A stretch of 7,590 nucleotides of DNA from a virus. Lineage: Duplodnaviria > Heunggongvirae > Uroviricota > Caudoviricetes. Within the stretch, counting starts at the first letter, position 1. Each line of letters starts with the position of its first letter. Below are positions 1-6,000 of the stretch, in pieces. Position numbers: made by a program. The DNA lies in the IMG/VR virus record IMGVR_UViG_2740892230_000005; one strand, 5' to 3'.

Positions 1-3000
1 CGTGATCCTGCTGGACTTTATGCGCCGGGAATTAAACCTGTCTAACTCATCAGTGCTTGGAGCCTGTCAGAAGCTTCAGGAGGCTGTTGGCTTACCGAAT
101 CTGGCACCGCNNNNNNNNNNAAAAGCGAGTTGCAAATTAGCAACTCGGTAACGGAATTGAGCAACACCCTAAATTTGGGTATTACCTCGTTAAAGATACT
201 GTATTTATGAACAGTGTATCCTTGATAACTATTAAAAATCGCAGTAAGTTCATCTTGCATCAACGAAAAGGGAGTGCAGTCCCGAAATTTGTGGAGAAAC
301 CAATGAATCAGTTGCTTGTAATTGATGGCGTTTCTGTGCGCCAGTACTTTGAATCTAACTACTGTCTTAACGACCTTCAGAAAGCTGCTCTTCTTGCCGC
401 TGGTGAGAATCGCTCCTCCCGTTCGCTGGAAGTTCACGAGTTTATGCGTCGTCCTGAAACGAAGGCTCTTGTGGAATTACTGGAAGAAGAAACTACGGGA
501 GATTCCCGTAGTATTCCTGTCATCACCATTCAGGGGCGCAATGGTGGGACGTATGTCTGTAAAGAGCTGGTCTATGCATATGCAATGTGGATCAGCCCGG
601 CATTCAGCTTAAAAGTGATACGTACTTTTGATGCGCTTCATAATTCATCACCAGAAGAAACCACATCCGACAAAATTAAATCCGGGGTCATTCTGCTTGA
701 ATCAGCAGCAAAGACTCTAAATCTGTCAAACTCCTCGAAACTTGGTGCATACCAGAAATTATCAAAGGTAGCAGGTCTTCCTGAACTTATGCCGAGCTAT
801 GCCATTGATGCACCTGCTGATGCGCCAGATGGTTCAAGCCGCCCGACACTGTCACTGAGTGCACTGCTGAAACAGTATGGTATACGCCTGACGGCTAATC
901 AGGCATATCACCAGATGGNNNNNNNNNNCGTCATTCCATCTGAAGGTGATCCGTACTTTCGATATGGTAACCAGCGCACCGGAAAAATTATCCGGGCAGG
1001 CTGCTGACAAGATGCAGGCTGGAGTGATTCTGCTGGACTTTATGCGCAGGGAGTTAAACCTGTCTAACTCTTCAGTGCTTGGTGCCTGTCAGAAACTCCA
1101 GGAGGCTGTTGGCTTACCGAATCTGGCACCGCGCTATGCCATTGATGCTCCTGCTGACGCGCCTGATGGCTCAAGTCGCCCTACGCTGTCGCTGAGTGCA
1201 CTGCTGAAACAGTATGGTATCCGCCTGACGGCTAATCAGGCATATCACCAGATGGTGAAACTGGGGATCGTCGAGCAGCGCGAACGATACAGCCGTACCG
1301 CGATTAACAACATCAAAAAATTCTGGTCGCTGACNNNNNNNNNNTACGGCTAATCAGGCATATCACCAGATGGCGAAGCTGGGGATCGTTGAACAACGCG
1401 AACGATACAGCCGTACCTCGATTAACAACATCAAAAAATTCTGGTCGCTGACAGCGAAAGGCTGCATGTTCGGCAAGAACATCACCAGTCCCGCAAATCC
1501 GCGCGAGACGCAGCCGCATTTCTTCGAATCCCGATTCCCTGAGCTGTTAAAGCTGCTCGATACCGTTCATTGAGGTGACCGTGAGAGCACTACTGACCCC
1601 TGAAATTGCCCCGCGTATGGGGATCGTATTGTTCAGGCCAGGTTCAGAGCTGATGCCCCTGTTTATGCAGGGGCGTGTCCTGCTGGAGCCTGAGCCGGAA
1701 CGTTATTCATCTTTCGCCAGTGGTGCCGTTCCGGCGGCATCACAACCGCTGGCGGATGATCCTGCCGTTCGGGCTGTGTTCCGCAATGAGGCAGTGATCC
1801 GTCGTGCTGGTGGCGTGGAATGTCTTGAAAGCTGGTTACTTCGTGAAAAAGGCTGCCAGTGGCCTCATTCCGACTGGCACAGCGAGAACATGACCACAAT
1901 GCGGCACGCTCCGGGAGCAATTCGTCTGTGCTGGCACTGCGATAACCAGCTGCGTGACCAGTTCACGGAACGGCTGGAATCAATGGCAACGGNNNNNNNN
2001 NNACACGCGCCGGGCGCAATCCGTCTGTGCTGGCACTGTGATAACCAGCTGCGCGATCAGTTCACGGAACGGCTGGAATCAATGGCAACGGATAACTGTG
2101 CCCGCTGGGTGTTGTCTGTTGTGCGTCGGGATCTCGGTTTTGATGACAGTCACGTTGTGACAATGCCGGAACTGTGCTGGTGGCTGATTCGTAATGACCT
2201 GGCGGATGCCTTACCGGAAAGTGCAGCCCGTAAGGCACTGAGATTACCGAAGCCTGTTGTGCCGTCTGTCACCCGGGAAAGTGACCTTGTGCCTTCGGTT
2301 CCTGCCACCAGCATCATCCAGGATAAAGCGAAAAAGGTGCTGGCGCTGAAAGTGGATCCGGAGTCGCCGGAGTCTTTTATGTTACGCCCAAAACGTCGCC
2401 GCTGGGTTAATGAAAAGTACACGCGCTGGGTTAAGACGCAGCCGTGCGCATGTTGTGGAAAGCCAGCTGATGATCCCCACCACCTGATAGGCCACGGTCA
2501 GGGTGGAATGGGTACAAAAGCGCATGATCNNNNNNNNNNTTGCGCGTGTTGTGGTAAGCCAGCCGACGATCCACATCACCTGATTGGCCATGGTCAGGGT
2601 GGAATGGGTACAAAAGCGCATGACCTTTTTGTGTTGCCTTTGTGCAGAAAACACCATGACGAACTGCATGCGGATACCGTGGCATTTGAAGAGAAGTATG
2701 GCTCTCAGCTGGAGCTGATATTTCGTTTTATCGATCGCGCGCTGGCGATTGGTGTGCTGTCCTGATTTTGTGGAGAAAGTTGATGCGTGATATTCAGATG
2801 GTTCTTGAACGCTGGGGGGCATGGGCGGCAAGTGGTAACACCGGGGTGGACTATTCTCCGATCGCTGCCGGATTCAAAGGACTTTTACCATCTGCCACTA
2901 AACCACGTCCGGCCTGCTGCGATGATGACGGACTTATCATTGAAAACTGTCTTGCTCGTCTGAAGCAGAAAAAACCTGAGGAGTATTCGCTTCTCATTGC

Positions 3001-6000
3001 TCATTATTTGTTGCGAATATCAAAAAGACAGATAGCCAGGACGAGAAAGAAAAGCGAAAAAGCAATACGAATTGAGATGCAGATAGCCGAAGGGTTTATT
3101 GACGGATGTTTGTCTGTGCTGGGGGTAAGACTGGAGATGGACGACTGGCTGCTAAAAAAGTAAAAAATGATTAGTGCGGTCCGCAAAAAGTATGTCAGTA
3201 TGTTAAGAGTGGTTACTTCGCCACACAGCTTAAACCCGCCGCGAGCGGGTTTTTTTATGGCTGAAATCGGTCCAGTACAGTAAACGTGCTGGTGGCGGTG
3301 AATACCTGTCTTTCAGCTTGCTGGCTTTTTCGACAAGAGTTATTGGTGTGTCACGTTAACCGGAAAAGGGAAAAAGACATGCTAAAACAGCAGGATATGA
3401 CAGAAACCGCCAGAGTGGTGTTTAATGAATTAAGCGTTACCGACCCGGCGACAGTCGGGGAGATTGCGCAGAATACTTACCTTTCACGCGAACGCTGTCA
3501 GTTAATACTGACCCAACTATCAGCGGGGTGAACTGGAAAAGCCACATCACCAACTGGTCAGCACATACAGTGAGCTGAACCGNNNNNNNNNNGTGTGCAT
3601 GTTGTGGAAAGCCCGCTGATGATCCCCACCACCTGATAGGTCACGGTCAGGGTGGAATGGGAACAAAAGCGCATGACCTCTTTGTGTTGCCTTTGTGCAG
3701 AAAGCATCACGACGAGCTGCATGCGGATACCGTGGCATTTGAAGAGAAGTATGGCTCTCAGCTGGAGCTGATATTTCGTTTTATCGATCGTGCGCTGGCA
3801 ATTGGCGTATTGGCGTAAGTGGAGAACGAGCATGAACCTTGAAGCCTTACCAAAATATTACTCCCCAAAATCTCCAAAATTGAGCGATGACGCACCGGCG
3901 ACAGGCTCAGGTGGTTTAACGATTACGGATGTGATGGCTGCGCAGGGGATGGTGCAGTCGAAAGCACCGCTTGGGTTTGCCTTATTCCTGGCAAAAGTTG
4001 GTGTTCAGGATCCTCAATTTGCGATTGAAGGTCTGCTCAATTACGCGATGGCACTGGATAACCCGACATTGAACAAATTGAGTGAAGAAACCCGGTTACA
4101 GATCATCCCTTACCTTGTGAATTTTGCCTTTGCTGATTATTCCAGGTCTGCGGCAAGTAAGGCTCGCTGTGAGCATTGTGCTGGTACTGGATTTCATAAT
4201 GTATTGCGCGAAGTGGTGAAACACTCCAGAAGCGGGGAATCTGTTATCAAGGAAGAGTGGGTGAAGGAACTATGTCAGCATTGTCATGGTAAGGGAGAAG
4301 TCAGCACAGCGTGCAGAGGGTGTAAGGGTAAAGGTATTGTCCTGGATGAAAAAAGGACCCGGCTTCATGGCACGCCTGTTTATAAGATTTGTGGGCGTTG
4401 CAATGGAAACCGGTTTAGCCGTTTACCAACCACACTGGCGCGGCATCATGTCCAGAAGCTGGTACCAGACCTGACGGATTATCAGTGGTACAAAGGATAT
4501 GCAGATGTCATTGATAAACTGGTTACAAAGTGCTGGCAGGAAGAAGCATATGCAGAGATACAATTGAGAAATGTGACAAGATAAATGGTTTTCGCCGAAG
4601 ATGACGACATGATGCTTGCATTTTTCAAAAAATATGGATAAGATTTTCCCAACGATGGGCTTTGTATGTCTACCGTTGATAAGATTTAAGAACCCGCCAC
4701 TGAGCGGGTTTTTTTGTGCCAGATGTCTCATGAAACTATGAAATGGATTGGTGCGTTAAACATTTTTTCTTATTATCTTTTAGATTTTGGAGAGATGGTT
4801 AACGTCTGTATTCCAGAAACTCGATGATTATTTAATAAATTAGTTTCAATGATGCTTCTAGGTTATGACTGTAATGAAAAAGGTATTAATAGCAGCGATA
4901 GGTTTTTGTTTAGTTGGTTGTGCAGGTATGAAATTACCTGAGTATTCGCAAGTTAAAGCAAGTCCGTATTATACAGATTGCCGTGCGTTTGCCATGGATG
5001 TTTATAAAAATGATGGATACAGCAAAATTGCGAAAACTACTATCCTTAGCATGGATGATGTGAAGACTAGATATATTGTGACAGGGTGTGTAGTTGCTAT
5101 GGGGAAAAACACTGTAGAGGAAATCAAAGCTGATCTCTCTGCTAAAGGGAGTTCTTTTGGGCTTATCAGTGGAGCTTGTTCTAGTGCGGCATGTCGGGTT
5201 GATGTAGAGCAGCAAATGAACGCTTATGTACTTGGTAGTTATTATGCTGCAAATAAAAAATTCCCGGATAAAATGAAAGCAGAGTTTTAAGTAAACCTTG
5301 TTTTCGATTATATGTCGAAGATAAATGTTAGTAACGGCATAATAAGTAAATATATAGCTGTGATAGCAACCCGCCACTGAGCGGGTTTTTTGTACCTGTA
5401 AACTTGGTGCAGTACAGTAAACACGCTGGTGGTCGTGAATACTGACTTTTTATCTTGCTGGCTTTTTAGACAAGAGTTATTGGTATGTCATGTTAACCAG
5501 AAGGGAAAAAGACATGATAAAACAGCAAGATATGACAGAAACCGCCGCCGCAGTCCTTCATTTCTTACCTGCTGACAAGTGGGTAACGCCACGCATGATG
5601 ACGAGAACTACCGGAGTAAGCGAAGCCCAGTGCCAGTTAATACTGACTCAGTTAGTTCTGGCGGGTCTGGCGAAGGATAACGGCGGGTACGGGAATAAAT
5701 TCAGACGCTGCCAGTAATGGCGGTTTCCTGCTGTGAAAATGGGCGGCTGGTGGGTGTTGGTAGCACCTGCCAGCCATTCGCTCATGCTTACTGGTCACAA
5801 GCGAACCACGGCCCACTGCTTTAGCGCAAAAGCAGAGTGAGCCTACCAGAGTTACGCTTACTGATCCATGAAAAATACTGTAAAAATAAACAGTGTTGAT
5901 TTAATCAACGCTGATTGCCTGCATTTTATTCAGTCCCTGCCTGATGATTCCATTGACCTGATTGTTACCGATCCGCCTTACTTCAAGGTGAAACCCAACG

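Follow-up and report, generated by a model that had tools for sequence, protein, structure and literature searches.

The stretch of viral DNA considered here, a 7,590-nucleotide (nt) record assigned to the Caudoviricetes (IMG/VR IMGVR_UViG_2740892230_000005; the whole of it is called the window below), carries two genes for Q antitermination proteins on the same strand, Q1 and Q2, each preceded by the 3' end of a DUF968 gene and each followed by an intrinsic terminator (Table 1). Three non-homologous Q families occupy equivalent genome positions: Q21 (PF06530), Q-lambda (PF03589) and Q82 (PF06323) (PMC9388147; PMC7171158). In the window members of two families stand side by side, on contigs (A and B) that meet at a run of ten Ns; the main question is whether this layout is a real double-antiterminator locus or a product of assembly.

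Q1 is a member of the Q21 family, matching PF06530 over profile positions 1-118 of 118 (E=1.4e-52, 177 bits against a cut-off of 26) and the PHROG family phrog_79, “anti-termination protein Q-like” (E=2.5e-48). The match to structures of the phage 21 Q (6P18/6JNX; E=7.5e-8) is distant and partial, pairing only residues 8-86 with chain residues 20-99; identity is 51% to K-12 QuuD and 48-49% to the Q of many Shiga toxin (Stx) 2a phages. An earlier note on this DNA had labelled Q1 as 82-type, a label that has to be given up: the Pfam scan at E<=0.01 returned only PF06530 and a weak DUF1133 match, with no PF06323, and by the definitions of Pfam, the phage 21 Q structure (PDB 6P18) and PMC9388147 the protein is of the Q21/QuuD family. 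In the assembly collection, 9,041 indexed blocks contain a protein identical to Q1, and in closed-genome contexts the gene has the position usual for the Q21 family, last in the nin/early-right region and before the terminator and lysis genes.

Q2, which the same note had assigned to the QuuQ type, does belong there. It matches PF03589 (E=9.6e-54, 179.9 bits against a cut-off of 26.7) and phrog_127 (E=2.7e-108), and is 94% identical to K-12 YdfT/QuuQ. Against the lambda Q structure 7UBM (E=1.3e-37), residues 1-120 align with lambda Q 1-125 and residues 160-250 with 117-207; residues 121-159 are unmatched, forming an extra segment of about 39 amino acids (aa), with a CXXCXGXG (DnaJ-like) zinc-finger motif, that lambda Q lacks. 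That the two Q families are unrelated also holds: no similarity between Q1 and Q2 was detectable (BLASTP E=0.17).

Both DUF968 fragments match the C-terminal part of PF06147, with its Cys/His HNH motif, at positions 101-171 of 171 (E=1.2e-38 each), as well as PF16784 (HNHc_6); DUF968 is classed as a His-Me finger domain (PMC5714182). Neither copy is complete, contig edges cutting them at 2540 and 3593, while closed genomes have intact genes of 329-349 aa. The two ends, put at roughly 90% identity in the earlier note, are 90.7% identical over 215 nt, and their proteins agree at 73 of 74 residues, only the last differing (S vs A), so that almost every one of the 24 nucleotide differences is silent. 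The common Shine-Dalgarno context is likewise present: both Q start codons have GTGGAGAA 5-6 nt ahead of them, and in a base-by-base alignment the homology of the two branches extends past the DUF968 stop codon and GTGGAGAA, stopping at the Q ATG. Where 0.2 occurrences of this box would be expected, the window has three, of which the third serves as the ribosome-binding site for a KilA-N gene at 303. A role for it as a special recombination signal is unsupported: it is a strong Shine-Dalgarno sequence and also precedes that unrelated gene, and the copies at the two Q junctions are homologous rather than independent.

Table 1. Features of the window around the two Q genes, with the scaffold elements that bear on their arrangement. 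ORF, open reading frame.
Feature	Coordinates	Strand	Basis
Contig A, Q21-family-type prophage: DUF968 3' end, Q1, terminator, truncated small ORF, fused DNA methylase 3' remnant	2540..3582	+	mapping
DUF968 3' end copy 1, His-Me/HNH nuclease C-terminus, 74 codons + TGA, cut at N gap	2541..2765	+	PF06147
Shine-Dalgarno box GTGGAGAA before Q1	2770..2777	+	alignment
Q1, Q21/QuuD-family antiterminator, 126 aa	ATG 2783..TAA 3163	+	Pfam, PDB, PHROG matches
Intrinsic terminator after Q1 (putative tR'), 8-bp stem + U-tract, -12.6 kcal/mol	3232..3258	+	folding
Small ORF, phrog_331, C-terminally truncated copy, 50 aa	3379..3531	+	phrog_331 E=4.4e-27
10-N scaffold gap, sole link between Q-bearing contigs	3583..3592	.	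sequence
Contig B, Q-lambda/QuuQ-type prophage: DUF968 3' end, Q2, pR', tR', moron, small ORF, DNA methylase, holin, lysozyme start	3593..7319	+	mapping
DUF968 3' end copy 2, begins at same homologous base as copy 1	3594..3818	+	PF06147
Shine-Dalgarno box GTGGAGAA before Q2	3819..3826	+	alignment
Q2, Q-lambda-family (YdfT/QuuQ type) antiterminator, 250 aa	ATG 3832..TAA 4584	+	Pfam, PDB, PHROG matches
Lambda-like late promoter pR', putative	4616..4659	+	alignment with lambda pR' and region after K-12 ydfT
pR' elements (putative): -35 TTGCAT; 17-nt spacer; -10 TAAGAT; 6 nt on, AACGAT then GGG	-35 4616-4621; -10 4639-4644; AACGAT 4651-4656	+	alignment
Intrinsic terminator directly after Q2 (putative tR'), -14.1 kcal/mol, z = -3.3	4691..4717	+	folding
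Second terminator copy in Q2 branch; homology with Q1 branch resumes	5368..5393	+	alignment, folding
Overlap pairs across gaps, among those found	1228-1334 / 1346-1452; 1905-1992 / 2004-2091; 2444-2527 / 2540-2623; 7246-7319 / 7330-7403		
Placement of the three 84-nt DUF968 alleles	end of segment 5, start of segment 6, start of segment 7		

The structure of the window bears directly on the arrangement. Seven runs of exactly 10 N (111-120, 919-928, 1335-1344, 1993-2002, 2530-2539, 3583-3592, 7320-7329) divide it into eight segments of 110 to 3,727 nt, and that the sixth of these runs is all that connects Q1 to Q2 already counts against a real tandem. At five of the seven gaps the flanks are homologous over 74-109 nt, with only 90-96% identity between the two sides; that the same overlap signature appears at most of the other gaps is a further point against adjacency at this one. 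In a genuine chromosome a short imperfect duplication would be needed at nearly every gap; contigs of paralogous prophages placed end to end explain the pattern directly. One 84-nt stretch of DUF968 is present as three different alleles (2444-2527, 2540-2623 and 3593-3676), mutually 89-95% identical. As an observation in its own right, this means that the source genome has three or more prophages with DUF968, unless the sample was mixed.

On closed genomes the segments sort into two prophage types. Segments 929-1334, 1345-1992, 2003-2529, 3593-7319 and 7330-7590 tile a single prophage of NZ_CP019280.1 with overlapping ends (locus coordinates, in order, 4703-5108, 5002-5648, 5560-6084, 6001-9728 and 9655-9915), contig B being 99.6% identical to it over 3,728 nt. 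The other type, found in NZ_CP027544.1, includes segments 121-918 (100% identical) and 2540-3582, the latter being contig A, with 99.3% identity over its full 1,043 nt. Both Q-bearing segments start at one homologous coordinate, 6001, as expected if contigs had been sorted by their start on a reference prophage. For a real tandem this is awkward: the second DUF968 fragment begins at the homologous base of the first, at a contig edge, and the contig before it extends 84 nt beyond that point.

The layouts in closed genomes are likewise separate. Contig A corresponds there to a full DUF968 gene (330 aa), Q1, a 50-aa ORF, a methylase remnant, tRNA-Ile, tRNA-Arg, a SASA esterase and lysis genes; it thus runs into the methylase remnant and tRNA genes and not into DUF968, contrary to what a tandem would have. 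Contig B corresponds to a full DUF968 gene (330 aa), ydfT, a 141-aa ORF, a 67-aa ORF, methylase, essD and rrrD, an order kept in nearly all of 10 contexts with the exact Q2 protein (one is without the small ORF and the methylase).

Searches for a double-Q locus elsewhere were negative. The span 2766-4584 was covered to at least 80% in one place in none of 5,426 complete E. coli genomes and none of 50,697 phage records, the best partial match (70%) consisting of Q2 and the downstream block that the two branches share. A survey of 82 loci, comprising 80 IMG/VR loci fetched with a DUF968 C-terminus and two closed-genome loci, found one DUF968 end and at most one Q-like gene in every case, with both Q types together in none of the 80 IMG/VR loci. 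Nor do both genes occur together in any of 20 contexts of the exact proteins (ten for Q1, ten for Q2), each of which has one full DUF968 and one Q. The exact join across 3583-3592 has no match in a collection of species-representative genomes, which counts for little as E. coli has one representative there. K-12 itself has both Q families, in separate prophages 1.07 Mb apart: quuD lies at 0.574 Mb, within DLP12, and the adjacent pair ydfU-ydfT at 1.643 Mb, within Qin.

The side-by-side layout of Q1 and Q2 is thus very probably an assembly artefact, in which contigs of different, related prophages have been joined across an N gap. The earlier note had added as a caveat that the two copies might belong to different prophages joined at 3583-3592, and it is this caveat that the contig overlaps, the mapping and the absence of a tandem from the collections searched bear out. 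The window would be a pseudo-scaffold: a single E. coli genome with related lambdoid prophages, two at the least and probably three or more, would have yielded short-read contigs that were then arranged on a prophage backbone with 10-N spacers between them. Contigs A and B would be alternative continuations of one DUF968 gene from different prophages and, being alternatives, would have been placed consecutively. The fixed length of the spacers and the homologous, mostly non-identical ends suggest that the contigs were ordered against a reference and not scaffolded by mate pairs. Lambdoid prophages are known break points of draft assemblies, and in short-read assemblies of poly-lysogenic E. coli the contigs break inside near-identical prophage modules and their scaffold order is no evidence of adjacency (PMC4587872); the present case has its own form, with contig ends that overlap by homology, are mostly non-identical and are separated by fixed 10-N spacers. 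A “double antiterminator” locus read from this window would be a false discovery, and the wider caution is that gene order over N gaps in draft E. coli assemblies, especially in lambdoid prophages, is not readable as biology.

Several points weigh against this account or limit it. The overlap pattern is not uniform: no flanking overlap was seen at gap 111-120, and gap 919-928 has only a 28-nt overlap, identical, with the next-but-one segment. A closed genome with both exact Q proteins, on which their distance could be measured, was looked for and not found among the ten best contexts for each protein, which share no record. A consensus promoter scan of 3100-3232 gave no confident sigma-70 promoter between Q1 and its terminator, and the antitermination activity of Q1 and Q2 is assumed from homology to phage 21 and lambda. 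Gene identities, contig structure, the lack of a tandem elsewhere and the junction anatomy of the 82 loci are direct observations; the scaffolding history is inferred from the pattern.

Other explanations have to be set against these observations. An origin of the two contigs in different genomes is very improbable; the sample would have been contaminated or mixed, from a metagenome bin or from two E. coli strains, with one prophage allele from each strain: alleles that are 90-96% identical could equally be orthologous and come from two strains, and each contig is near-identical to sequences in many different strains, but no such mixture is required, since single E. coli genomes routinely have several such prophages (K-12 with both Q families), and the three alleles of one DUF968 stretch fit a poly-lysogen. 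Even with a mixed sample the tandem is not a real adjacency. Very little credence goes to a nuclease-stimulated, homing-like exchange at the left boundary or a true tandem in the source strain, taken together, as the evidence disfavours both; in the former, the DUF968 His-Me finger protein could cut a second phage, co-resident or co-infecting, close to the 3' end of the DUF968 gene there, and repair could import the neighbouring Q cassette, so that the sharp left boundary may not be a passive product of homologous recombination and selection (PMC4118853; PMC5714182). The least credible possibility is that one prophage really carries DUF968-Q1-terminator-small ORF followed by a 5'-truncated DUF968 fragment and Q2, a late operon with two non-homologous antiterminators made by unequal recombination of two co-resident prophages: the contigs are adjacent in the record as given, and several recombinable DUF968-bearing prophages per genome are common (places matching contig A in complete E. 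coli genomes number 2 at the median and up to 12), but the gap structure, the mapping and the lack of any example in the complete genomes, phage records, IMG/VR loci and exact-protein contexts searched all speak against it.

If the two contigs are alternatives from different prophages, as preferred here, a full DUF968 gene (YdfU-like, for a His-Me/HNH nuclease) is most likely present once in each prophage of the real genome, with a single Q gene 17-22 nt further on, of the Q21 family in one prophage and of the Q-lambda family (QuuQ/YdfT) in the other. Late promoter, loading site and leader would be cognate to each Q and form a cassette with it: the protein would load onto RNA polymerase paused just downstream of pR', permitting read-through of tR' into the late genes (the small ORF, methylase, holin and lysozyme, with stx in some relatives). 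Q2, judging from its homologs, would load at the pause site after pR', the polymerase then being carried past the terminators. Across the phage population, non-homologous cassettes replace one another by recombination in conserved flanks, with a sharp left boundary (the last DUF968 codon and GTGGAGAA) and a variable right one. The window itself gives no evidence that such an exchange happened in this strain, and it is well established that lambdoid phages, being mosaic, exchange non-homologous Q genes, with the promoter and loading site cognate to each, at an equivalent genome position. Mosaic lambdoid phages carry non-homologous, functionally equivalent genes at equivalent positions, with exchange boundaries at gene borders (PMC9388147; PMC6266700); set beside this mosaicism, including that of the Stx-phage Q alleles (Q933, Q21, QO111:H-), the present case shows no difference in kind and adds to the documented junctions that formed by the DUF968 stop codon and GTGGAGAA. 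The choice of allele has consequences, as expression of the late genes and of Shiga toxin is affected by which Q allele precedes the late genes.

The 82-locus survey makes a small descriptive addition regarding the left boundary, which lies at the DUF968 stop codon and the shared ribosome-binding site, with Q21, Q-lambda and DUF1133 genes alternating behind it. The next gene begins 17-22 nt after the last DUF968 codon in all 82 loci, and the GTGGAGAA box is nearly universal. The gene in that position is of the Q21 family (PF06530, 49-100% identical to Q1) in 45 loci, of the Q-lambda family (PF03589) in 34 and a DUF1133 gene in 3. The last 222 nt of DUF968 contain 24 diagnostic single-nucleotide polymorphisms (SNPs), most of which assort without regard to Q type; those that follow it are a few at the 3' end, and the final one has state “1” in all but one Q1-family locus and state “2” in all Q2 loci. 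Linkage to Q type is thus confined to the final ~10 nt of DUF968, and the cassette has its left boundary where that gene ends.

The three DUF1133 loci (L050, L075 and L081, at about 2725-3320 in each) encode a 192-aa protein that matches PF06576 (E=6.5e-90) and also PF06530 (9.3e-9), and which is probably a divergent Q-like antiterminator. The box before this gene has the form (G/A)TGGAGAA, being GTGGAGAA in two loci and ATGGAGAA in L075.

The right boundary behaves differently. The earlier note had proposed modular exchange of Q alleles at a fixed junction and a terminator shared by both copies; the first proposal stands for the left boundary, where three families alternate after DUF968, and fails on the right, which varies. 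The second is also true in part. The terminators 3' of both Q genes have a common CCCGC/GCGGG stem and U-tract, but the block containing the Q1 terminator, which starts 68 nt past the stop codon, is homologous to the second block after Q2 and not the first: it aligns with 5368-5546 (85% over 182 nt), ~0.78 kb downstream of Q2, while the 24-nt hairpin is all that it has in common with the terminator directly after Q2, those 24 nt being identical to 5368-5391. When the shared block (the terminator and the start of the phrog_331 ORF) was located by BLAST in the 82 loci, it lay directly after Q in only 13 and 0.8-1.7 kb off in others, and for 48 loci it was not found within the available downstream flank of ~2.5 kb or less. 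With its position differing among loci, there is no fixed right boundary. Behind Q in the Q1-family loci there are 35 distinct sequences, too diverse for meaningful alignment or for conserved elements to be recognized; such diversity would be expected of Q alleles that each move together with a loading site of their own.

Downstream of Q2, the region aligns with the Q-pR'-tR' module of lambda, including the -10 element and AACGAT-GGG of pR', and this homology suggests that a lambda-like late promoter may be used here. The 17-nt spacer of the putative promoter is where lambda has its Q-binding element (QBE), and AACGAT-GGG is, in lambda, the sigma-dependent pause element. The names of the elements follow PMC9388147. 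Differences from lambda are also evident: a leader of only about 65 nt separates pR' and the first terminator in the window, and Q follows ninI in lambda and DUF968 here. A closer parallel for the gene order is Qin of K-12, in which quuQ (ydfT) likewise comes directly after a DUF968 (YdfU-type) gene, ydfU; the Q2 allele differs from both lambda and Qin in having a 141-aa moron between two terminator copies. For Q1, PF06530 is the likeness to the Q21 family as a whole (phage 21 Q, DLP12 QuuD and Stx-phage Q), and identical or 99% identical proteins occur in Stx-converting prophages, although QuuD in DLP12 follows rusA-ylcG and Q1 follows DUF968.

In one closed genome, CP027342.1 (genes 6001-9626 of locus L091), the exact Q1 protein is encoded ~2 kb upstream of Shiga-toxin genes (PF00161 RIP and PF02258 SLT_beta), and an Stx2a-converting phage carries a Q that is 99.2% identical to it; from this gene order, the Q1 allele may drive stx expression in some lineages.

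The 141-aa ORF between the two terminator copies (4691-5391) lies at 4865-5290, belongs to phrog_4748 and has a lipoprotein-like N-terminus, MKKVLIAAIGFCLVGC. The island around it has ~35% GC, against ~49% in the flanks, and has the 24-nt terminator hairpin on both sides in identical form (4691-4714 and 5368-5391), a layout classic for a phage “moron.” The ORF is present in only 1 of 34 Q2-type IMG/VR loci, but in all 10 of the assemblies with the exact Q2 protein.

In the Q1 branch the phrog_331 ORF is 50 aa long, against 67 aa for the copy at 5514-5717, and the sequence then enters the 3' part of the methylase gene (window 3379-3582). The annotation of NZ_CP027544.1, in which the small ORF is a hypothetical protein and the next gene a methylase “missing N-terminus,” points to a deletion that fused the two genes.

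At the other end of the window, the KilA-N antirepressor-like region (1-1334) consists of overlapping alleles (1-110, 121-918 and 929-1334) with 81-94% mutual identity, ascribed to the same stacking of contigs. Gene calling is affected as well. A 396-aa “DUF968” ORF at 1575-2765 crosses two N gaps and stays in frame across them, the duplicated overlaps being spaced 99 and 96 nt start-to-start; it is chimeric and internally duplicated, where intact genes encode 329-349 aa, and an automatic annotator could call the protein real.

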